The notes beneath the pieces were generated by a model that was not told where the DNA came from, did no database searches, and was given only the letters and a program-made list of their open reading frames with translations. A DNA stretch of 39,646 bases, taken from sequence record NC_019501.1; one strand, given 5' to 3'. The translations under genes were made by a program, and so were the position numbers. This document shows positions 17,758 to 37,460 of the stretch, in pieces. This stretch comes from Enterobacteria phage IME10. Each line of letters starts with the position of its first letter. The stretch's first letter is position 1.

Positions 17758-18258
17758 ATGACCCAGCATATTGGCGTAAAACTGATTAACGCCTTTCCGA
17801 TGACGAGACAGGCATATAACGATTTTCGTGGCTGGCAGCTTCCTGCCGGAGAAAACGGCGAGGACGAAGGCTATCTGGTTGAATATCTGGATGGCGGAAA
17901 ACCTAACACCGATCGCTTTGATGGCTACGTTAGCTGGAGTCCAAAAGAAGTATTCGAAAAGGCTTATCGTCAGGTATCAGGGCTAAGTTTCGGCCTTGCC
18001 ATCGAAGCACTCAAACTGGGTAAGAAAGTTACCCGTGCTGGCTGGAATGGGAAAGGCATGTATCTGCAATTAGTTCAGCCACCGCAATCAGCCACTCCGA
18101 ATGATTGGCGCTATGACGTTACATGTGGTGACGAGTATACATTTGTTCCTGGTGTAAAACTTCTTCCCTGGATTGGGATGAAGACTGCTGATTGTAAATT
18201 TGTTCCGTGGTTGGCGAGTCAGACTGATGTTCTGGCTGAAGACTGGCAAATCATTTAA
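17758..18258 (+). CDS. Accessory protein with a C-terminal DUF2829-like domain (candidate anti-defence)
   Basis: 166 aa. C-terminal half carries [17 protein letters not shown] ... [14 protein letters not shown], which I associate from memory with the small phage DUF2829 family. Sits in the accessory slot between Rz and terS. Confidence 0.5.
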
Positions 18259-21277: not shown

Positions 21278-23443
21278 ATGGCCGACGAAAACAGACTCAA
21301 TTCCATTCTGTGTAAGTTTGACGCAGACTGGATGGCGAGCGATGAAGCCAGAACCGAGGCGACAAATGACCTGTATTTTAGCCGAGTGTCGCAATGGGAT
21401 GACTGGCTATCAAACTACACGACTCTGCAATATCGCGGACAATTCGATGTTGTTCGCCCGGTGGTCAGGAAACTGGTCGCAGAGATGCGCCGGAACCCTA
21501 TCGACGTTCTCTTCCGACCCAAAGACGGTGCTAATCCTGATGCAGCCGATGTGTTGATGGGGATGTATCGTACTGATATGCGCCATAACACGGCAAAGAT
21601 TGCCGTTAACGTTGGCGTTCGTGAGCAGATAGAGTCCGGCGTTGGTGCATGGCGTCTGGTCACGCAGTACGAAGACAACGACCCAACAAGCAACAATCAG
21701 GTAATCCGACGCCTGCCAATCCATGAAGCTTGCTCACACGTTATATGGGACGCCAACAGCAAGCAGATGGATAAGAGCGACGCTAAGCACTGCACGGTGA
21801 TTAACGCCTTGTCGCGCAATGGCTGGAAAGAGTTCGCAGAGGATTACGGTATTGACCCGGATACCTTGCCATCTTTCCAGAATCCTAACGATACATGGCT
21901 ATTCCCGTGGGTGTCGAATGATGTCGTCTACGTCGCTGAGTATTACGAGGTAGAAGAGAAGAAGGAGAAGGTCTTCATCTACCGCGACCCGCTGACAGGT
22001 GAGCCGGTCAGCTATTACCAGCAGGATATCAAAGACGTCATCGACGACCTGGCTAATCGTGGATTCATTAAGGTAGCAGAGCGCAAGTTGAAGCGTCGGC
22101 GTGTGTATAAGTCGATCATCACCTGCACGCAGATACTGAAAGACCGCGAGAAGATAGCCGGAGAGCATATTCCAATCGTTCCAGTGTATGGCGAATGGTC
22201 ATTCGCTGGTGACAAGGAGTGCTACGAAGGAGTGGTAAGGCTGACGAAAGACGGTCAACGCCTTCGTAACATGATCATGTCGTTCAACGCCGATATTGTT
22301 GCTCGTTCACCGAAGAAGAAACCGACCTTCTTCCCTGAGCAAATCGAAGGCTACGAATACATGTACGGTGGAAATGATGACTATCCGTACTATCTGCAGA
22401 ACAGGACCGATGAAAACGGTAACGACCTGCCGATTGGTCCAATCTCCTACATGGAAAACCCTGAAGTGCCGCAAGCCAACGCTTACATGCTTGAGGCTGC
22501 CACCAACGCAGTGAAAGAGGTGGCTAGTCTTGGTGTGGATGCGCAGGCAGCAAACTCTCAGGTCGCTTTCGATACCGTCAATCAACTGAACATGCGGGCA
22601 GACCTTGAGACATACGTGTTTCAGGATAACCTTGCTACCGCAATGCGACGTGATGGCGAGATTTATGCCTCAATGGTCAATGATATTTATGACGTTCCTC
22701 GTCATGTAACGCTGACACTTGAAGATGGTAGCGAGAAAGACGTTCAACTCTACGCGCAAGTTGTAGATTACCAGTCCGGTAATGTGGTCACACTCAACGA
22801 CATTCGCGGTCGCTATGAGTGCTATACCGACGTTGGACCATCCTTCCAGAGTATGAAGGAACAGAACCGCGCAGAGATTCAGGAGTTACTCACCAAGGTT
22901 CCGCAAGGTACTCCAGAGTTCCAGATGCTGATGTTGCAATATTTCACGCTGCTTGACGGTAAAGGCGTCGAGATGATGCGAGAGTACGCGAACAAGCAAC
23001 TGGTGATGATGGGGCTGAAGAAACCAGAAACACCTGAAGAGATGGAGATGGTGCAACAGGCGCAACAGCAGCCGCAGCAGCCATCAGCAGAGCAAATTCA
23101 GGCGCAGGGTATCCTTCTGCAAGGTCAGGCTGAATTGATCAAGGCAGAGAACCAACAGGCGCAGATTCAGGTTGAAGCCGCCAAGGTTGAAGCCCAAAAC
23201 CAACTCAACGCCGCGAAGATTGCAGAAATCTTCAACAATATGGACCTCGACAAGCAGGCAGAACTGCGTGAGTACCTCAAGCTCGTAGGTCAATTCCAGC
23301 AACAGCGCAGCAAAGATGCTCGTGCTAACGCTGAGCTGCTTCTTAAAGATGCAGACCAGACTCATTCACAACGCATGGATTTCGCGAATCTTATGCGTCA
23401 AGTTCAAATCCCCTCCGGCGGAGTAGCCGAGACACCTCAATAA
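21278..23443 (+). CDS. Portal protein (P22 gp1-like)
   Basis: 721 aa, P22 portal-like throughout, including the Gln-rich C-terminal barrel. Confidence 0.95.
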
Positions 23444-31063: not shown

Positions 31064-33457
31064 ATGGCTAATTACCGTGATTTGTTAGAGCAGGCTGGCG
31101 CACGTTACGGTGTGCCAGAAGGGTTGATGACTGCACTGGGTGCCAAGGAGTCTTCTTACAACCCTGCCGCAGTAAGCTCCGCCGGGGCTGTAGGATTGAC
31201 TCAGGTCATGCCTGGGACATGGCGTGATATGGGTTATACCGATGAGCAAATGCAAAACCCCGAATATCAGGCTGACGCTGGCGCGCGCTATCTGGCAAAG
31301 ATGTACCAGCAGTTTGGTAACTGGCGTGACGCTCTTCAGGCTTATCACGACGGTCCCGGCAACGTTATGAAGGCAAAGCGTGGTGAATATACGCCAGGAC
31401 CTGAAGGCCGCGGTTACGTTGATGATCGCTTTGCTCAATGGGCGGGTGACCCGGTGACAGACTCAACAGTCGAACAGCGCGCCACCTCTGCAAAGGTACA
31501 TCCTCAGCAAGACCCTAACAACCCGTTTGCACAACTGGAAGCACAGTCATCCGAACAAGTATCGGCATCAGGCGTGCAGTCAGACCCAAATAATCCATTT
31601 GCTCAGATTGAGCAGCAGGCAGCCAGTCAGCAGCCACCTCAACCCGTAAGTTCTGTCGCACCGAAACCTGTTCAGCAGCAAGGCGGAATAATGTCTGACC
31701 TTGGTAATGGACTTGCTGAAACCGGGCGCGGCTTACTACAGGCAGGAATCAACGTAGCGAACATACCTGCTGAACTCACTGATGCTGTAACAAGCGCGGC
31801 GGCTTGGGCTGGCGGTAAACTCGGCATTGGCGATGGTACATATCAACCAGCGCCACGAGTAACAACGCAGGGATTAGAGCAGGACTTTGGCCTTCAGCAA
31901 GGCGCGCTGACTCCACAAACGACAGAGGGCAGGGTGTTTGCTGAAGCATTGCCTTACCTCACTCCTGCTGGCGTTGAGAGAGCGGCAGCACAGGCACCAA
32001 CACTTGCTGGTCGAATTGCTCAGGGGGCAACTCGCCTTCTAGCAGAAAACGCAGTTGGATCACTTGCTGAAAATAGTGCGAAAGATGATGCGGAAGCACT
32101 CGCCACCGATTTAGGCGTTGGTGTGCTGGCTGGCGGTGCTATTAACGCTGCCGGACGTGGATTAGGTGCTGCTTATCGTGGCGTTCGTGGTGCTATTGCG
32201 CCAGAAGCGCAGCAGGCTATCAGATTTGCAGAGCGTGAAGGAGTTCCTCTGCACACCACAGACCTGTTACAGCCTACTTCCCGGGTCGGAAAAATGGCGC
32301 AGACTACAGCAGAAAATATCCCTCTGGCTGGCACAAGCGGAATGAGAGCAACGCAACAGGAAGCGAGAAGCCAGTTGGTGCAGAGATTTGCTGATAAATT
32401 CGGCGAGTACGATCCGGCAGTTGTTATTGACAGCCTTAAAGCGAAAACATCAGGAATTCGTCGTGCTGCAGGGAGCCGTCTTGAGCAGGTTCAGAATGCA
32501 ATGGCGGGAGTCAATATACAGCCTGCGCGAGCAATTCAGCAGATTGATACTGAGATATCTAATCTGCAGAAGCTTGGTAAGGTAGCTGATAACGAGACAA
32601 TTTCAAAACTTCAGTCATATCGTGATGAGCTTGTTCGCAATGCTGGCCCTGATGGTCCGGTAAATCTGGATTTGAAGCAATTAAGCGACCTGCGCAGCCA
32701 GTTCAGAATGGACGTGAAGGGTGAGCGACCAGTGTTACCAAACCGTTCCGATGCCGCCATTCAGCGCGTTTACAAGGCAATGACTGACGATATCAATGGT
32801 GCCATTGGTCAGAATCTTGGCAACGATACTCTCCGTAAATATCAGCAGGCCAATGCCGTCTATGCTGACGAAGCGGCGAAACTAAAGAATACCAGGCTGA
32901 AGAATGTTCTCATGAAAGGCGACCTGACGCCGGAAGTTGTCAACAACATGCTATTCAGCAAGAACAAATCGGAAATTAAGACGCTGTATAACTCAGTTGG
33001 TCGCGTTGGCAGGGCGCAAATGCGCAATGGCATCATTGGAAAGGCGATGGAGAAATCAGGTGGTTCCCCTGACCAGTTCCTTCGGCAGCTTAATATTCTG
33101 CAAAACCAGACTGGCATCACATTTAAGGGGCAGGACGCTGCTTATCTGAAAGGATTAAAAAACTACCTGCAATCCACGCAGCAGGCAGCAAAAGCGGCAG
33201 TAACAACACCAACAGGGCAGCAAACCATCCCGTTTATTATCGGGTATGGGACGGCAATGAACCCGGCGACAACTGGCGCAGCAGTAAGCTACGGACTTCT
33301 TACTCGCGCCTATGAGAGCGAGCCATTCAGAAATGCAATGCTCCGAATGGCAAACACCCCACGCGGTTCAACAGCGTTTGAGAAAGCCATGCAGCAGGCA
33401 CAAAAGGCAATTAACGCTATGACGCAGGGGGCTAAGTCTGATGCGTTGTCAGAATAG
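31064..33457 (+). CDS. Ejection protein (gp16 position) with an N-terminal lytic transglycosylase (SLT) domain
   Basis: 797 aa. N-terminal 100 aa carry the SLT signature (GAKESSYNPAAVSSAGAVGLTQVMPGTW); the remainder is Ala/Gln-rich. Confidence 0.75.
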   Translation: MANYRDLLEQAGARYGVPEGLMTALGAKESSYNPAAVSSAGAVGLTQVMPGTWRDMGYTDEQMQNPEYQADAGARYLAKMYQQFGNWRDALQAYHDGPGNVMKAKRGEYTPGPEGRGYVDDRFAQWAGDPVTDSTVEQRATSAKVHPQQDPNNPFAQLEAQSSEQVSASGVQSDPNNPFAQIEQQAASQQPPQPVSSVAPKPVQQQGGIMSDLGNGLAETGRGLLQAGINVANIPAELTDAVTSAAAWAGGKLGIGDGTYQPAPRVTTQGLEQDFGLQQGALTPQTTEGRVFAEALPYLTPAGVERAAAQAPTLAGRIAQGATRLLAENAVGSLAENSAKDDAEALATDLGVGVLAGGAINAAGRGLGAAYRGVRGAIAPEAQQAIRFAEREGVPLHTTDLLQPTSRVGKMAQTTAENIPLAGTSGMRATQQEARSQLVQRFADKFGEYDPAVVIDSLKAKTSGIRRAAGSRLEQVQNAMAGVNIQPARAIQQIDTEISNLQKLGKVADNETISKLQSYRDELVRNAGPDGPVNLDLKQLSDLRSQFRMDVKGERPVLPNRSDAAIQRVYKAMTDDINGAIGQNLGNDTLRKYQQANAVYADEAAKLKNTRLKNVLMKGDLTPEVVNNMLFSKNKSEIKTLYNSVGRVGRAQMRNGIIGKAMEKSGGSPDQFLRQLNILQNQTGITFKGQDAAYLKGLKNYLQSTQQAAKAAVTTPTGQQTIPFIIGYGTAMNPATTGAAVSYGLLTRAYESEPFRNAMLRMANTPRGSTAFEKAMQQAQKAINAMTQGAKSDALSE

Positions 33458-33546
33458 CTTTTCAAACACCAGGAACGTGCAAAAACCAAATATGTAGAAC
33501 GCAATATTCAGCATATCTCTTTGCATAAATCCTCCGTAACTGATGG

Positions 33547-33807
33547 TTAGCTACTGTCTTTTTTATATAGCTTCTTGAGCGTATCAAAGACAATTTTCTT
33601 AACCATATCAGATTGTTGTTCTGCCATACGCTCTGCATCGTCAATGTAAACTGATGCAGAGCTTTGTTTATCCAATGATTCTTCAATCGCTGCAATTATC
33701 TCTGAGTTCAGCGACCTGTTATTCATCTTCGCGCGCTGTTTAATTTTCGCGTGGAGTTCATGCGGAAGTCTCAAGTGAAACTGCGCCTCGTCGTATTTGC
33801 TGTACAT
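33547..33807 (-). CDS. mnt: Mnt-like ribbon-helix-helix repressor
   Basis: Track ORF 33547..33840 trimmed to the ATG at 33807. Matches P22 Mnt as remembered, especially the C-terminus (DAERMAEQQSDMVKKIVFDTLKKLYKK). Confidence 0.8.
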   Translation of the reverse strand: MYSKYDEAQFHLRLPHELHAKIKQRAKMNNRSLNSEIIAAIEESLDKQSSASVYIDDAERMAEQQSDMVKKIVFDTLKKLYKKDSS

Positions 33808-33880
33808 CCTTGATGCCTCACCAGTTGGGTGGAATGGCATCGTAACCTACTGGATAAATACTCAATAGTACCATTTCGGT

Positions 33881-33903
33881 ATGCAATCACATCATGATTG
33901 CAT
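33881..33903. promoter_or_regulatory. 9-5-9 inverted repeat ATGCAATCA-CATCA-TGATTGCAT between mnt and the tailspike
   Basis: Perfect 9-bp arms, 25 bp upstream of the tailspike ATG and divergent from mnt. Candidate operator. Confidence 0.4.
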
Positions 33904-33928
33904 CATATCATTCGTCTGGAGCAATGAA

Positions 33929-35749
33929 ATGTCAGATATCACCGCAAATGTTGTGGTAAGCATGCCTTCGCAACTATTCACTATGGCGCGTTCTTTTAAA
34001 GCCGTAGCCAATGGAAAAATTTATATCGGTAAAATTGACACTGACCCGGTAAATCCTGAAAACCAGATTCAGGTTTATGTGGAAAACGAAGACGGTTCTC
34101 ACGTTCCTGTTGCACAGCCAATCATCATTAACGCTGCTGGTTACCCTGTATATAATGGACAGATTGCCAAATTCGTAACTGTGCAAGGCCATTCGATGGC
34201 TGTATACGATGCGTATGGTGTGCAGCAGTTTTATTACCCGAATGTGCTGAAGTATGACCCTGATCAGTTGGAGCAACGATTGTCTTCACCTGGTGGCGCA
34301 GTGTATATAGGTGGCGTTGGTGGTGGAAATTTATCCCAAATAATAAATGCGGTATCTCCAGAACAGTTCGGAGCAGTAGGAGACGGATTCACTGATGATA
34401 TTGAAGCTCTCGATGCTTGCATGGCTTTTGCGAGAGAAAAACCATTAGACATTATATTTAGTAAGACATACGCAATTTCACGTCCTTATGTTATTTACAT
34501 GGGAAATAAAAAAAATCCTCGCCATATTGGTCAAGGGTCCATGGCGAAAATAATATTAACCACAACAACAAAATCTGGATTGGGTAGTGACTCATACGGT
34601 ACTGATTTGAATGTAAACGCAGCTGTTATTGTAGCCGCGATCACAGGTACAGGGCATAACCAACAACCCCAGAACTTTCGGTGGGAAAACATTGACCTTG
34701 ACACCACTGTAGATGCAGATTACGGCATGTACACGTCAAAAATGCAGTCCGCGGCAGTCAGTAATTTCAGGACGTATAATTTCAAGACAGGTATTCAGGA
34801 TAACGGTTCCTGGAATACGTTGTATGAAAACATTAAGATGTCTGCCCACTCCACCGTAGGTTTCCGTAAAAATGCTGGTACTAGTACTACTATCCGTAAC
34901 TGTTACGTAGAGAAATCGAAAGTTGGTTATCGTGTTTACAGCGGATACTCTCAGATTGAAGGGTGTGCATGCGACACTAGCACTGATGTCTCGTATTGGA
35001 TTGAAGGTAACCCAGTAGCTTTAAGTAGTGACAGCACGTTTTCTCTTGTGTCATGTGGCGCAGAGAATTCAGGGACGGCCGTGGTACGAATTACTGGGAC
35101 ACTAACAGCAAGTATTATCAACTTTCAATCATTTAATTGGTCACAACAGCAAGACCCGACACCAGATTGTTTCTTAGATATTCAGTCCAACACTGCTAGC
35201 ATTTCAGTTGAAGAGGTCAGATATCTTGGTGTTGCTCGCAGGATAAAAGACACTGGAACAAACAACACAGTTATCATAAGAAATATGACGACTCGTGGTA
35301 CAGATGTTAGAGATCAGGATACCTATCCAAATAGCACTAGAATTATTGAGCTTAATCATAACGGTGTGCGAGTAGCGACAGGTTACGATAAAAATGGGAT
35401 TTTGATCACTGAAGATAATATGACCGATTCAATCGGAAGTACTACATGGTCAAGGCTATTTAACAAACAAAAAATTTGGCGCTATAGGGGTATAGTAACA
35501 AGAACAAGCGGTCAGAGTTACGGAAGGTTACAGATCAATATTCCGTTCACTATGGCTGATAATAGTTATAGCGTTGCTATTACACCAGAAGTGTATCACA
35601 CCGATATGGCAACATATGGTTACCAATGTTCAGTAGGCCCAACTGATAAAACAACAACATCATTCTTCATCAACGTAAACTCTGGAACAGGTAACACGTC
35701 ATGGAACAGTATAGCTGTTGACGTAATTGTGATGGGGCTTTCTATCTAA
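33929..35749 (+). CDS. Tailspike protein with a conserved head-binding domain and a divergent receptor-binding domain
   Basis: Track ORF 33881..35749 trimmed to the ATG at 33929. N-terminal 110 aa or so match the P22/Sf6 tailspike head-binding domain as remembered; the rest is unrelated to P22 gp9. Confidence 0.9.
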
Positions 35750-35993: not shown

Positions 35994-37460
35994 ATGAGAA
36001 ATATGAAATTACTCTCAAAAAGACTAGTGGTAATTGTATGTTCTGTATTTATCCTTTCAATTATATTGTGCATACATTTAAGAAAGGGAAACTTTAACCT
36101 CAATAATATAAGTAGCGTACAAAATGCTAATGACATATCAACAACCAATAGTATATTGAATGATGATTTAGTGTTTTCCGAAAGATATGATTCCCTTTTT
36201 TATTACTTCGTGCATTCGTTTGTTAAATATTCTTCAGATGATTATGCTCTTGTTAATTATCCTGGGATGCTATCGACGAGTGGGAATAAGACAAACCAAG
36301 TTGAGGGTACGGCAAGGACGCTACCATTAATTGCTGCATGGGTTTATTCTGGAAGAGATTCAACCATTATCGTTAATGGTAATAAGTTAAATATAGTAGA
36401 TCTGATTAGGAGTAGTATATTGTCTGGAACTAATCCAAGTTCTGTAAACTATTGGGGGGATATACATGATTATGATCAGAGAATTTTAGAGGCCGCAGAT
36501 ATAGTAAGAGTCTTATGGCTTACAAAAAAAGAGATATGGAATCACTTAAAAGATAATGAAAAAAATCAGATAGCTTTGTGGCTGGAGCAAGCTGCATCGG
36601 CGAAAACTGTAAAAAACAATTGGCTACTAGCTCCATTCATAATTCAGAATTTTTTGCAGGATAATGGATATACAGTTAAGGTTAATTACAAAAATTACAC
36701 AGACTTTAAGAAAAACTATCTTGAACACGGATGGTTTAGAGATGGAAATGATGGAGAAGTAGATTTCTATAATACTTGGGGTATATCCTATGACTTATTC
36801 TGGATATCACTTATTACAGATTATGATAATGCTTTTATACTAAAAACACTATCTGAGTCGGCTGATTTCACTTCACATTTAATATCTAAAAATGGCATCC
36901 CGCTTGTTGGTAGAAGTATTTGCTACAGGACTGCAGCACCCACACCTGTTCTAATTGAAGGTCTATTAAAAAATGATGGATATCATCAAGGTTTAGCAAA
37001 ATCAGCATTAGACTATACGTGGAAATATTTTGCAAGCCACAATGCATTAGTATCAGATACATTATCAATGGGGTATTTTAATAATGACAAGCGCTTTGTT
37101 GATAATTATAGCGGGTCAGGAAGTTGCCTGTGGGGAATAAGGTCGTTAGTTGTCGCTTATATGAATGATAAAAAATCATATATCTGGAATGGGAAATATG
37201 AGAGATTGCCTATTGATAATTCTGATTTCATTATCAATGCAGATAAACTTGGTTGGATAGTTGAGGGTAATAAAGATAGTGGAGAGATAAGGGTTATTAT
37301 ACCTGCAAACGAAAAAAACTCACCAAAGATAAATGATACCAATAAACTTAAAGAAGTTATATGGAGAGTTCTTGGTAAAGCAGGAAGAACTAATCAACAT
37401 GACATTGAGTACCTAAAGCCATATTACTCATCACTAGAGCCTATATCTGACGTTGAGTGA
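35994..37460 (+). CDS. Hypothetical signal-anchored protein (488 aa), AT-rich cargo gene
   Basis: Track ORF (alternative start ATG 36003). N-terminal hydrophobic segment KRLVVIVCSVFILSIILCIHL, then an Asn/Lys/Tyr/Trp-rich domain. AT-rich codon usage unlike the rest of the window. Confidence 0.6.
   Translation: MRNMKLLSKRLVVIVCSVFILSIILCIHLRKGNFNLNNISSVQNANDISTTNSILNDDLVFSERYDSLFYYFVHSFVKYSSDDYALVNYPGMLSTSGNKTNQVEGTARTLPLIAAWVYSGRDSTIIVNGNKLNIVDLIRSSILSGTNPSSVNYWGDIHDYDQRILEAADIVRVLWLTKKEIWNHLKDNEKNQIALWLEQAASAKTVKNNWLLAPFIIQNFLQDNGYTVKVNYKNYTDFKKNYLEHGWFRDGNDGEVDFYNTWGISYDLFWISLITDYDNAFILKTLSESADFTSHLISKNGIPLVGRSICYRTAAPTPVLIEGLLKNDGYHQGLAKSALDYTWKYFASHNALVSDTLSMGYFNNDKRFVDNYSGSGSCLWGIRSLVVAYMNDKKSYIWNGKYERLPIDNSDFIINADKLGWIVEGNKDSGEIRVIIPANEKNSPKINDTNKLKEVIWRVLGKAGRTNQHDIEYLKPYYSSLEPISDVE

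Follow-up and report, generated by a model that had tools for sequence, protein, structure and literature searches.

A lone mnt gene ahead of the tailspike gene of Enterobacteria phage IME10, with a candidate Mnt operator and a probable tailspike leader hairpin

RESULTS

mnt alone in the immI slot ahead of the tailspike gene

The sequence examined here, referred to as the window, is the whole 39,646-nucleotide stretch of Enterobacteria phage IME10 DNA (accession number NC_019501.1). Of the immI genes, the window has mnt alone in the interval separating its gene 16 and gene 9 homologues, and this mnt is divergent from the tailspike gene (Table 1). The gp16-like gene is the final late-operon gene ahead of the variable "ant moron" slot, and the last 150 amino acids of its product share 96 to 99% identity across 70 or more relatives. 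On the other side of the slot, the conserved head-binding domain of the tailspike is followed by a divergent receptor-binding part. Alignments of the window to the moron-less phages Sf6 and 683R2 stop at position 33527 (...CTCTTTGCATA) and restart at 33913 (CGTCTGGAGC...), which delimits the mnt cassette; the moron-less spacer in Sf6 is only 77 bp. Tailspike starts at 33881, as given in the open reading frame list, and at 33930 were both rejected, the former being an upstream in-frame ATG. A divergent region of about 120 bp had been proposed from the sequence alone, and this length held (121 bp, counted from the mnt ATG at 33807).

Table 1. Features of the mnt-tailspike region of the window
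Feature	Position	Strand	Description
gp16-like DNA-ejection gene	31064-33457	+	N-terminal SLT transglycosylase domain (Pfam SLT, E = 2.9e-25)
mnt cassette	33528-33912		385 bp; based on local alignments to Sf6 and 683R2
mnt coding sequence	33547-33807	-	86 aa plus stop; Pfam and PDB matches, PGAP start
N-terminal extension of longest ORF (M1 to R11)	33808-33840	-	11 codons; most likely 5' leader
Inverted repeat GATGCC-N18-GGCATC	33812-33841		In mnt leader; based on aligned intergenic sequences
Weak rightward promoter-like match	33834-33862	+	ATGGCA-17-AATACT, 8/12; roughly where P22 has its ant promoter
Predicted mnt promoter counterpart	33839-33865	-	-35 TTGAGT (33865-33860), 15-nt spacer, -10 TACGAT (33844-33839)
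Candidate Mnt operator AGTACCATTTCGGTATG	33867-33883		17 bp; cores GTACC and GGTA(T) flank a variable center
Palindrome ATGCAATCA-CATCA-TGATTGCAT	33881-33903	+	Perfect 9-5-9 inverted repeat
Rest of tailspike leader	33904-33931	+	Shine-Dalgarno GGAG 33918-33921, ATG 33929-33931
Tailspike gene	33929-35749	+	P22-type head-binding domain (Pfam Head_binding, E = 1.7e-66, residues 1-113)

The mnt product and its start codon

Judged by its domain and structure matches, the product is an ordinary Mnt, with a ribbon-helix-helix N-terminal domain and a C-terminal tetramerization helix. The DNA-binding domain matches Pfam Arc (PF03869, E = 1.1e-14) and the coiled-coil tetramerization domain matches Pfam Repressor_Mnt (PF11423, E = 8.7e-15), while the P22 Mnt structures 1mnt (E = 7.5e-19, residues 6 to 78 aligned) and 1qey (E = 4.4e-08) were also matched. 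Together with the SLT and Head_binding domains encoded on either side, these matches uphold the placement of an Mnt-like gene between the last ejection gene and the tailspike gene that the sequence-only reading had made. The protein is approximately 49% identical to P22 Mnt; both domains are shared and the C-terminal helix is nearly identical, whereas the DNA-contacting strand reads QFHLRLP in the window and HFNFRMP in P22.

The longest open reading frame of mnt has 97 codons (33547 to 33840, minus strand). Its first methionine (M1, 33840) was ruled out as the start, because the extension contains a stop codon in relative L007, in L009 M1 is not in frame with the coding sequence, and the PGAP annotation of Escherichia coli genomes begins the gene at the internal ATG, giving the 86-aa product. 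The annotations of VSe13, Gally, and JEP4 also begin mnt at the internal ATG, and the 33 nucleotides of the extension are most likely an untranslated, noncoding leader. An intact 86-aa open reading frame was found in 82 of the 90 relatives fetched, with premature stops making pseudogenes of 2 of the approximately 90. The dN/dS ratio was 0.24 when pooled and between 0.05 and 0.35 in four of the five pairwise comparisons. From the intact frames and the pooled ratio, mnt appears to be maintained under purifying selection.

Lone mnt genes in related phages

A lone mnt ahead of the tailspike gene was identified in 142 of 5,426 complete E. coli genomes and in phage Sf101 (KJ832078). In IMG/VR, mnt was present in all 80 loci kept, with the tailspike start directly next to it in most. 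Some relatives have a gap of 650 to 700 bp between the two genes; it was dismissed as a target of the regulator, as it contains a homing endonuclease. In 30 of 80 related loci, the tailspike-side mnt is still in place alongside another Mnt-like gene, which is divergent from an operon of arc-like, Rha, or KilA genes. The antirepressor operons of related prophages lie under other regulators with unrelated palindromes. Mnt-only "ant morons" have been published for ST64T, ST104, and Para1 (Villafane et al. 2008, PMC2629481) and for phage L (Zaworski et al. 2020, PMC8022706). A lone mnt is common among related phages, has been described before, and is not unusual.

The Salmonella phages L, ST64T, ST104, and SE1 resemble the window in having a divergent mnt between gene 16 and the tailspike gene and in lacking arc, ant, and sieA. 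The window holds mnt alone, whereas phage L has one additional small open reading frame (orf62) and SE1 has two. Under a definition made in this analysis rather than a published one, the leader that the window shares with L/ST64T-type phages comprises TGATGCC...GGCATC, a counterpart of the mnt promoter, an operator after CAATA, and a hairpin before the tailspike Shine-Dalgarno sequence. Within this layout the sequences differ: the Salmonella phages pair an Mnt with RDDPQFNLRLP and the operator AAGACCAC-N-GTGGTCT, the window pairs QFHLRLP with GTACC-N5-GGTA, and the leader hairpin of the phage L type is unlike that of the window. Phage Sf101 carries the same cassette directly before its tailspike gene (Sf101_0014, 97% nucleotide identity; not discussed in the Sf101 paper), with the common A-to-G variant of the palindrome, and the gene upstream is likewise of the ejection/transglycosylase kind, though with a C terminus unlike that in the window. 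Sf6 and 683R2 share the flank at the end of gene 16 with the window, and these two phages and g341c, all without a moron, share the ribosome-binding region of the tailspike gene.

Absence of arc, ant, and a strong ant promoter

The immI region of P22 (mnt, mnt promoter, ant promoter, mnt operator, arc operator, arc, sar, and ant) occupies the same genomic slot, and the window differs from it in having no arc, ant, sar, sieA, or orf59a. When the P22 immI proteins were used as tblastn queries, mnt was the sole match in the window (E = 7e-25). P22 Arc and Ant and the Rha-type and KilA-type antirepressors gave no match in the window, with a best E value of 2.0 among antirepressors and of 10 for Arc, and no antirepressor domain was detected when the early-region open reading frames were scanned against Pfam and PHROG. 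The earlier statement that the window has no arc or ant is thereby confirmed. No sar antisense RNA or other known RNA family was matched in Rfam at E ≤ 1 between 33300 and 34100. A complete immI, with ant divergent from mnt, arc, sar, and a strong ant promoter, is not present in the window.

At the position of the strong rightward ant promoter of P22 (TTGACA-17-TATATT, 11 of 12 consensus matches), the window has an inverted repeat and a weak match of 8 of 12 with a shifted -10. The repeat, GATGCC-N18-GGCATC, was found in the lone-mnt phages examined, with both operator types, and is missing from P22 and epsilon34, which carry the ant promoter -35 (TTGACA) in its place. A transcript from the weak match would begin inside the 17-bp site described below, and no rightward match of at least 7 of 12 was found in phage L or Gally. 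By comparison of these sequences, the strong ant promoter has been lost and the putative counterpart of the mnt promoter kept.

A candidate Mnt operator beside the mnt promoter counterpart

The counterpart of the mnt promoter was identified by its position, which corresponds to that of the mnt promoter annotated in P22 (TTGAGA-17-TATCAT). Its spacer, 17 nt in VSe13, Gally, and phage L, is shorter in the window, making it weak on paper. The tailspike leader contains two further promoter-like matches directed leftward, and because a generic scan returned 2 matches against 1.7 expected by chance, the promoter calls rely on positional homology to P22.

Adjoining the -35 of this putative promoter is the candidate operator AGTACCATTTCGGTATG, which occurs once in the window. 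Like the mnt operator of P22, it immediately follows CAATA and has the same placement relative to the -35. The cores were kept in approximately 279 of 283 fetched loci (duplicates included), with variation in the center rather than in the cores. The site is symmetric at only four of eight positions, in contrast to the near-perfect dyads of P22 and phage L, and its sequence is unlike that of P22. Natural domain swaps among the relatives link protein and site, as the type of the Mnt N-terminal domain predicts the type of site whatever the C-terminal domain: QFHLRLP occurs with GTACC-N5-GGTA, RDDPQFNLRLP with the phage L-type site, and RDDPHFNFRMP with AGGTCCACGGTGGACCT. Most likely, therefore, the Mnt of the window would bind this 17-bp site rather than the palindrome.

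Among the 118 IMG/VR matches listed with this operator, the tailspike gene follows in 112, and in three of the 118 the tailspike match starts 67 or 79 nt past the operator. An intact arc-ant operon follows the operator in none of the 118 matches listed, and one has only an ant fragment. In one relative (L155/L258), the C-terminal part of a P22-type ant (residues 191 to 300) and the ant terminator separate this operator from the tailspike gene.

No further copies of the operator or of the palindrome were found in the window at up to three mismatches. A second TACC-N5-GGTA core at 22769, in the portal gene, has different flanks and was treated as a chance occurrence. A second site in L035, TACCGAATTGGTA, lies among TTTACCGA-like repeats in a 167-aa open reading frame beside cI-like and Cro-like repressor genes; these motifs are read as replication-origin repeats irrelevant to the Mnt site.

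The palindrome and the tailspike leader

The perfect 9-5-9 repeat reported in the sequence-only reading is indeed present. Repeats of this kind are expected by chance approximately 0.003 times per 88 nt and 1.4 times in the whole window. The repeat ends 14 nt ahead of the tailspike Shine-Dalgarno sequence and 26 nt upstream of the ATG. Three nucleotides of its left arm also belong to the right end of the 17-bp site. The perfect form was seen in just 7 of 77 leaders of the window type. Most relatives carry A33897G, an 8/9 version that still forms a U·G wobble pair in the plus-sense RNA, while this pair is C-G in L083 and L085, and a G-C pair of the stem has become U-A by compensatory change in L007. 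A covariation score as high as that observed was reached by 28 of 500 shuffled controls for the window type and 10 of 500 for the P22 type, a modest support for the hairpin given how closely related the sequences are. The predicted fold of the leader is no more stable than that of shuffled sequence (z-score of -1.1, weak) and includes a second small hairpin in which CATATCATT pairs with AATGAAATG, so that the tailspike start codon is covered. No run of T residues marking an intrinsic terminator follows the palindrome or the mnt 3' flank.

A hairpin occupies the position of the palindrome in all P22-like tailspike leaders examined, including that of Sf6, which has no mnt. The hairpins end 13 to 16 nt before the Shine-Dalgarno sequence in P22, Sf6, HK620, CUS-3, epsilon34, phage L, and Gally, and 13 to 15 nt before GGAG in Sf6, 683R2, and g341c; the Sf6-type hairpin is longer, with an outer stem (TGCAAT...ATTGC) only loosely like the palindrome. 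The palindrome is probably the lineage version of this hairpin in the tailspike mRNA leader, acting at the RNA level, and probably a separate element from the Mnt operator.

The earlier suggestion that the palindrome is the Mnt site, with the lone repressor rewired for direct control of the tailspike gene, draws on its perfection, improbable by chance, its closeness to the tailspike ATG, and its overlap with the 17-bp site. However, the position holds unrelated sequence in six relatives whose Mnt is 95 to 99% identical (L012, L059, L060, L063, L089, and L091) and in VSe13 and JEP4, which have the same DNA-binding domain; in all of these the adjacent 17-bp site is kept, and another hairpin replaces the palindrome in the contigs. 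The repeat is imperfect in the other 70 of the 77 window-type leaders, its 23-bp layout is unlike the 17-bp dyads of Mnt operators, and 683R2 and g341c, like Sf6, have a hairpin at this spot despite having no mnt. We regard this suggestion as highly improbable.

DISCUSSION

Origin and role of the lone mnt

The account that we favor, and consider reasonably probable, is that the locus is the smallest version of the "ant moron" in the immI slot: a lone intact mnt with a putative promoter and operator of its own, lying antisense in the late operon. An ancestral mnt-arc-ant module would have lost arc and ant. The ant fragment and terminator between operator and tailspike in L155/L258 point to such an origin, and the comparative data agree with the remnant of an immI deletion that the sequence-only reading had offered as its alternative. 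On the 17-bp site, Mnt would abut the -35 of its own promoter and cover the start point of a residual rightward ant promoter, and in the lysogen it may thereby control its own promoter and silence any rightward transcription that still enters the tailspike gene, with the 9-5-9 repeat acting as a separate RNA hairpin in the tailspike leader. Mnt binding, promoter activity, and physiological role are read here from sequence comparison. Antirepressor genes are the normal control target of Mnt. Autoregulation is the likeliest remaining role, if unproven, and the functional account of a lone Mnt is incomplete in that a repressor acting only on itself has no obvious benefit.

Other roles can be set against this account. 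Mnt on the 17-bp site could shut off an ant promoter remnant or read-through, keeping the tailspike gene and a downstream conversion gene silent in the lysogen, or could tune read-through of the late operon, an effect that has been proposed for P22. The start of the weak rightward match within the site, the tailspike gene following the operator in nearly all of the IMG/VR matches listed, and the persistence of mnt beside it even in loci with a second Mnt-like gene all suit such a role, as does the report that the P22 moron may affect the tailspike level (PMC2629481). Yet phage L and Gally have the same architecture with no comparable rightward match, a lysogen has no known benefit from repressing a structural protein of the cytoplasm, and Sf6-type phages do without control of this kind, and we consider the proposal unlikely. 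Prophage Mnt might instead act in trans, silencing the ant promoter of incoming relatives with the same operator and so guarding against induction by antirepressor, which would account for selection on Mnt and on site specificity alike and fits what P22 Mnt does in the lysogen (PMC11016777). The lack of any intact arc-ant after the operator in the matches listed and the control of related prophages' antirepressor operons by other regulators make this very improbable.

A functionless relic, an immI part that has not yet decayed, was raised as a possibility for the mnt of phage L (PMC8022706), and it would be in keeping with the degraded ant promoter, the premature stops in two relatives, and the viability of related phages that have no moron. 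Against it stand the low dN/dS ratio and the intact reading frame in most relatives, as well as operator cores that are conserved while the center and flanks vary. Moreover, protein and site have co-diversified into at least two specificity types among lone-mnt phages, and the operators of L, SE1, and Gally remain near-perfect dyads, both of which require continued selection for binding. A relic is accordingly rated as quite unlikely. A more far-reaching possibility, which we hold only tentatively and think doubtful, is that the tailspike-side mnt forms a distinct, selectively maintained class of regulator rather than leftover immI. Its persistence with a matched operator of its own, its constant place against the tailspike leader, its occurrence in at least two specificity types, and its presence even in prophages with a separate Mnt-like gene and an arc-like/antirepressor operon would fit such a class. 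If so, it could control transcription passing from the late operon to the prophage end that holds the tailspike and lysogenic-conversion genes, or could serve in defense against superinfecting relatives, in place of controlling a resident antirepressor.

Implications

The gene is widely mislabeled as "partition protein ATPase" or "chromosome segregation ATPase" in Sf101 records, RefSeq phage records, and PHROG 795; the proper annotation is a repressor of the Mnt/Arc family that starts at the internal ATG. These findings leave the overall view of P22-like immunity regions as it was. They add what appears to be an intermediate of the deletion, and they cleanly separate the candidate operator from the tailspike leader hairpin. 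The domain-swap series predicts which residues of Mnt read which bases, and the published question of whether a lone mnt is a relic or has taken on a new job can now be tested with the 17-bp candidate operator.

Identity of the lone mnt gene and its prevalence

The window, a P22-like (Lederbergvirus) prophage, has the gene order cI/Cro/CII-type immunity region, nin, lysis, terminase, portal, coat, ejection, and then tailspike and integrase. The open reading frame (ORF) ahead of the tailspike gene matched the Pfam families Repressor_Mnt and Arc and the solved N- and C-terminal domains of P22 Mnt (PDB 1mnt and 1qey, respectively), and no arc, ant, Rha-type, or KilA-type antirepressor was detectable anywhere in the window. 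The sequence-only reading, that an mnt gene without arc and ant lies between the ejection and tailspike genes, is therefore confirmed; a search of the window for overlooked arc or ant homologues detected none. Mnt homologues are consistently mislabelled "partition protein ATPase" or "chromosome segregation ATPase" (window 33547-33807, Sf101_0014, RefSeq ST64T, SE1, ST160, epsilon34, and others), and PHROG 795, the best PHROG match of the window Mnt (E 7.5e-36), carries that ATPase name. The longest ORF starts at the ATG at 33840 (M1). Sequence comparison places the true start at the internal ATG at 33807, giving an 86-amino-acid product, as PGAP annotates mnt from this codon in E. coli genomes, a stop codon lies inside the 11-codon N-terminal extension of an Escherichia sp. 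relative (L007), and M1 is out of frame with the mnt coding sequence in a Citrobacter relative (L009).

Locations of features in the window and of inserts in relatives
Feature	Location	Strand	Size	Remark
gp16-like ejection gene	end at 33457			
mnt cassette	33528-33912		385 bp	Defined against moron-less Sf6 and 683R2
mnt ORF	33547-33840	minus		Sole ORF between gp16-like ejection gene and tailspike gene
GATGCC-N18-GGCATC arms	33812-33817 and 33836-33841			In mnt leader
Tailspike gene	ATG 33929			Head-binding domain, Pfam E 1.7e-66
Inserts between mnt leader and tailspike	L008, L022, L025, L034, L087		~695 bp	
Inserts between mnt leader and tailspike	L018, L019, L057, L061, L070, L081		621 bp	
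Insert between mnt leader and tailspike	L059		627 bp	

The same slot is the hypervariable "ant moron" of the literature, in which ST64T, ST104, and Para1 carry only mnt and one unknown gene (PMC2629481). In phage L, SE1, Gally, VSe13, and JEP4, mnt is directly divergent from the tailspike gene, and phage Sf101 has the same cassette at 97% identity, where mnt bears the name "chromosome segregation ATPase." The first scan of IMG/VR gave 80 retained loci, each with mnt, and in most of them the tailspike start is 88 nt from M1; in 142 of 5426 complete E. coli genomes, at least 80% of the 801-bp query was covered at a single place. The lone-mnt arrangement is thus ordinary for the P22-like phage group and already published, and given the ant-moron literature and the five phages with a directly divergent mnt, the window is one more example of it. 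Having mnt alone, it is the smallest version; Sf6, which has no moron, possesses a 77-bp spacer where the window has the mnt cassette.

Two other genes of the window were of note. A Tad2-like domain (Thoeris anti-defence 2; Pfam E 1.8e-24) was identified in a 166-amino-acid protein encoded just past the lysis genes (17758-18258, plus strand), whose late-region gene may serve in anti-defence. A 488-amino-acid DUF2264 protein (35994-37460, plus strand; Pfam E 3e-63) with no PHROG match is encoded in a strongly AT-rich segment (GC 0.27 to 0.38) that separates tailspike from integrase; as Sf6 and Sf101 have O-antigen acetyltransferases in this slot, the gene is probably lysogenic-conversion cargo.

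The inverted repeat as a probable RNA hairpin in the tailspike leader

The repeat ATGCAATCA-CATCA-TGATTGCAT at 33881-33903 is perfect, as had been noted, with about 0.003 such repeats expected by chance per 88 nt. Its proposed role as an Mnt site is, however, unsupported. Six contigs (L012, L059, L060, L063, L089, and L091) encode an Mnt 95 to 99% identical to that of the window, yet the sequence past the 17-bp site at 33867-33883 is entirely different, being a P22-type leader with the hairpin CCGTAGCCATGCTGCGG; the palindrome therefore does not travel with the Mnt protein. It is perfect in only 7 of 77 window-type leaders. In the commonest form (47/77), A33897G produces a U·G pair in the plus-sense RNA; L083 and L085 have C-G at this pair, L007 has a double change from G-C to U-A, and three more single changes each yield G·U pairs. 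Mismatches occur in L046 and L007, and L086 and L093 have them at the loop-closing and terminal pairs. A hairpin ends 13 to 16 nt ahead of the Shine-Dalgarno GGAG in all P22-like tailspike leaders examined, including those of the mnt-less Sf6, 683R2, and g341c. Across 20 distinct variants of the P22-type hairpin, 94% of cells were paired, numerous changes were compatible with G·U pairing, and one pair was compensatory; the observed covariation score was reached by 10 of 500 shuffles.

The decoupling from Mnt, the pairing-compatible variants, and the hairpins in mnt-less leaders suggest that the tailspike message has a conserved RNA hairpin, of which 33881-33903 is the form in this lineage. Support is no more than moderate, because the window-type leaders differ little from one another (28 of 500 shuffles reached the observed score) and no unusual fold stability of this hairpin was found. 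Possible roles include message stability, processing, translation, or a recombination boundary like that annotated as "bsq1" in CUS-3. P22 itself has two copies of the hairpin sequence CACCGTAGCCAYGCT... in the interval from the ant terminator to gene 9, a hint that it acts as a recombination boundary. A second small hairpin, weakly stable, is predicted at 33904-33931 (plus strand; CATATCATT pairs with AATGAAATG), with the tailspike start codon in the stem and the Shine-Dalgarno sequence in the loop.

Approximately 12 relatives have an opposite-strand HNH endonuclease gene inserted directly after the fifth tailspike codon (ATGTCAGATATCACC|...), with the tailspike restarting downstream. Three different endonucleases were found among the inserts, two also with an AP2 domain (Pfam HNH_3, E 2e-20 to 4e-15), and the tailspike 5' end looks like a homing-endonuclease hotspot.

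A candidate operator left of the palindrome and the promoters around it

A better operator candidate lies immediately left of the palindrome. The P22 operator annotated for mnt, AGGTCCACGGTGGACCT, comes after CTCAATA and lies immediately upstream of the mnt promoter -35, and the homologous position in the window holds AGTACCATTTCGGTATG (33867-33883), in single copy within the window. Natural domain swaps occur among the relatives. Mnt proteins with the N-terminal strand QFHLRLP (for example, those of the window, VSe13, L153, L156, L158, L160, and L172) have at least five different C-terminal domains, and their site is always (A/C)GTACC(A/G)TTTNGGTA(T/C)G. Similarly, the strand RDDPQFNLRLP pairs with AAGACCAC-N-GTGGTCT whether the C-terminal domain is P22-like (Gally and SE1), L-like (phage L), or VSe13-like (L169 and L171), and RDDPHFNFRMP (P22 and epsilon34) pairs with AGGTCCACGGTGGACC. 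Across all fetched loci, duplicates included, the cores GTACC and GGTA of the 17-bp site are nearly invariant and the central bases variable, and its symmetry is only partial. Nearly invariant cores with a variable centre are the pattern expected of a dyad-binding protein, and it is mainly this pattern that places the candidate operator at 33867-33883, where Mnt would most likely bind. The window has two TACC-N5-GGTA matches against 0.14 expected; the further one, TACCAGTCCGGTA (22769-22781, plus strand), is inside the portal gene, has flanks unlike those of the operator, and is probably a chance match.

P22 and epsilon34, both with arc and ant, have a strong rightward ant promoter (TTGACA-17-TATATT, 11/12) and a leftward mnt promoter (TTGAGA-17-TATCAT). 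The counterpart of the latter is retained in VSe13, JEP4, Gally, and phage L (TTGnnn-17-TAnGAT) and in the window (TTGAGT-15-TACGAT). No good rightward promoter was found in the lone-mnt phage leaders compared; the best match in the window is only 8/12, and its transcript start would fall inside the 17-bp site. At the ant promoter -35 position, the lone-mnt leaders examined, of both operator types, have the inverted repeat GATGCC-N18-GGCATC, which is absent from P22 and epsilon34, differs in its inner sequence among lone-mnt phages, and could be a 5'-UTR hairpin or the binding site of another protein. Most economically, Mnt expressed from the prophage would bind 33867-33883, where it would regulate its own promoter and hold residual rightward initiation off.

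Origin and maintenance of the lone gene

The sequence-only reading had offered, as an alternative, that the gene is left from a deletion in immI, and descent from the full immI module is supported by one IMG/VR contig, L155 (= L258), with the same Mnt type and operator as the window. Past its operator lie a hairpin, the C-terminal 110 codons of ant, the ant terminator, and the tailspike gene; the ant fragment is P22-type (residues 191 to 300, 93% identical) and lies approximately 110 to 470 nt past the mnt start in the tailspike orientation. L155 thus appears to be an intermediate from the deletion of arc and ant. Among the matches listed, none of the 118 sampled loci with this operator had an intact arc-ant operon.

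Among 90 fetched loci in which mnt was matched, the 86-amino-acid ORF is intact in 82 and prematurely terminated in two (L082, codon 32; L009, codon 5). When each was compared with the window, pairwise dN/dS was 0.05 to 0.35 for four of the five comparisons; the remaining one (L008, 0.95) derives from just five differences. The pooled ratio of nonsynonymous to synonymous segregating variants per site was 0.24. These values indicate purifying selection on mnt, with the caveat that the sequences are closely related and the counts low.

A second Mnt-like gene, divergent from an arc-like/Rha/KilA operon, was present in 30 of 80 VSe13/JEP4-type IMG/VR loci (drawn from L105 to L152; e.g., L121 5293-5613 and L112 5316-5567), and has its own, unrelated palindromic sites (e.g., GGTTCTAGAACC and ATGACATCACCATGATGTCAT). 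The 96-amino-acid "antirepressor protein" of VSe13 (vse13_015) corresponds to the C-terminal third of a 266-amino-acid Serratia marcescens protein (L011 1072-1872), the gene for which is convergent with mnt in the Serratia prophage. In the two-Mnt loci, the mnt gene studied here adjoins the tailspike gene, at the far end of the arc-like/Rha/KilA operon; that it is kept there even in such loci hints at a possible separate function for the tailspike-proximal mnt.
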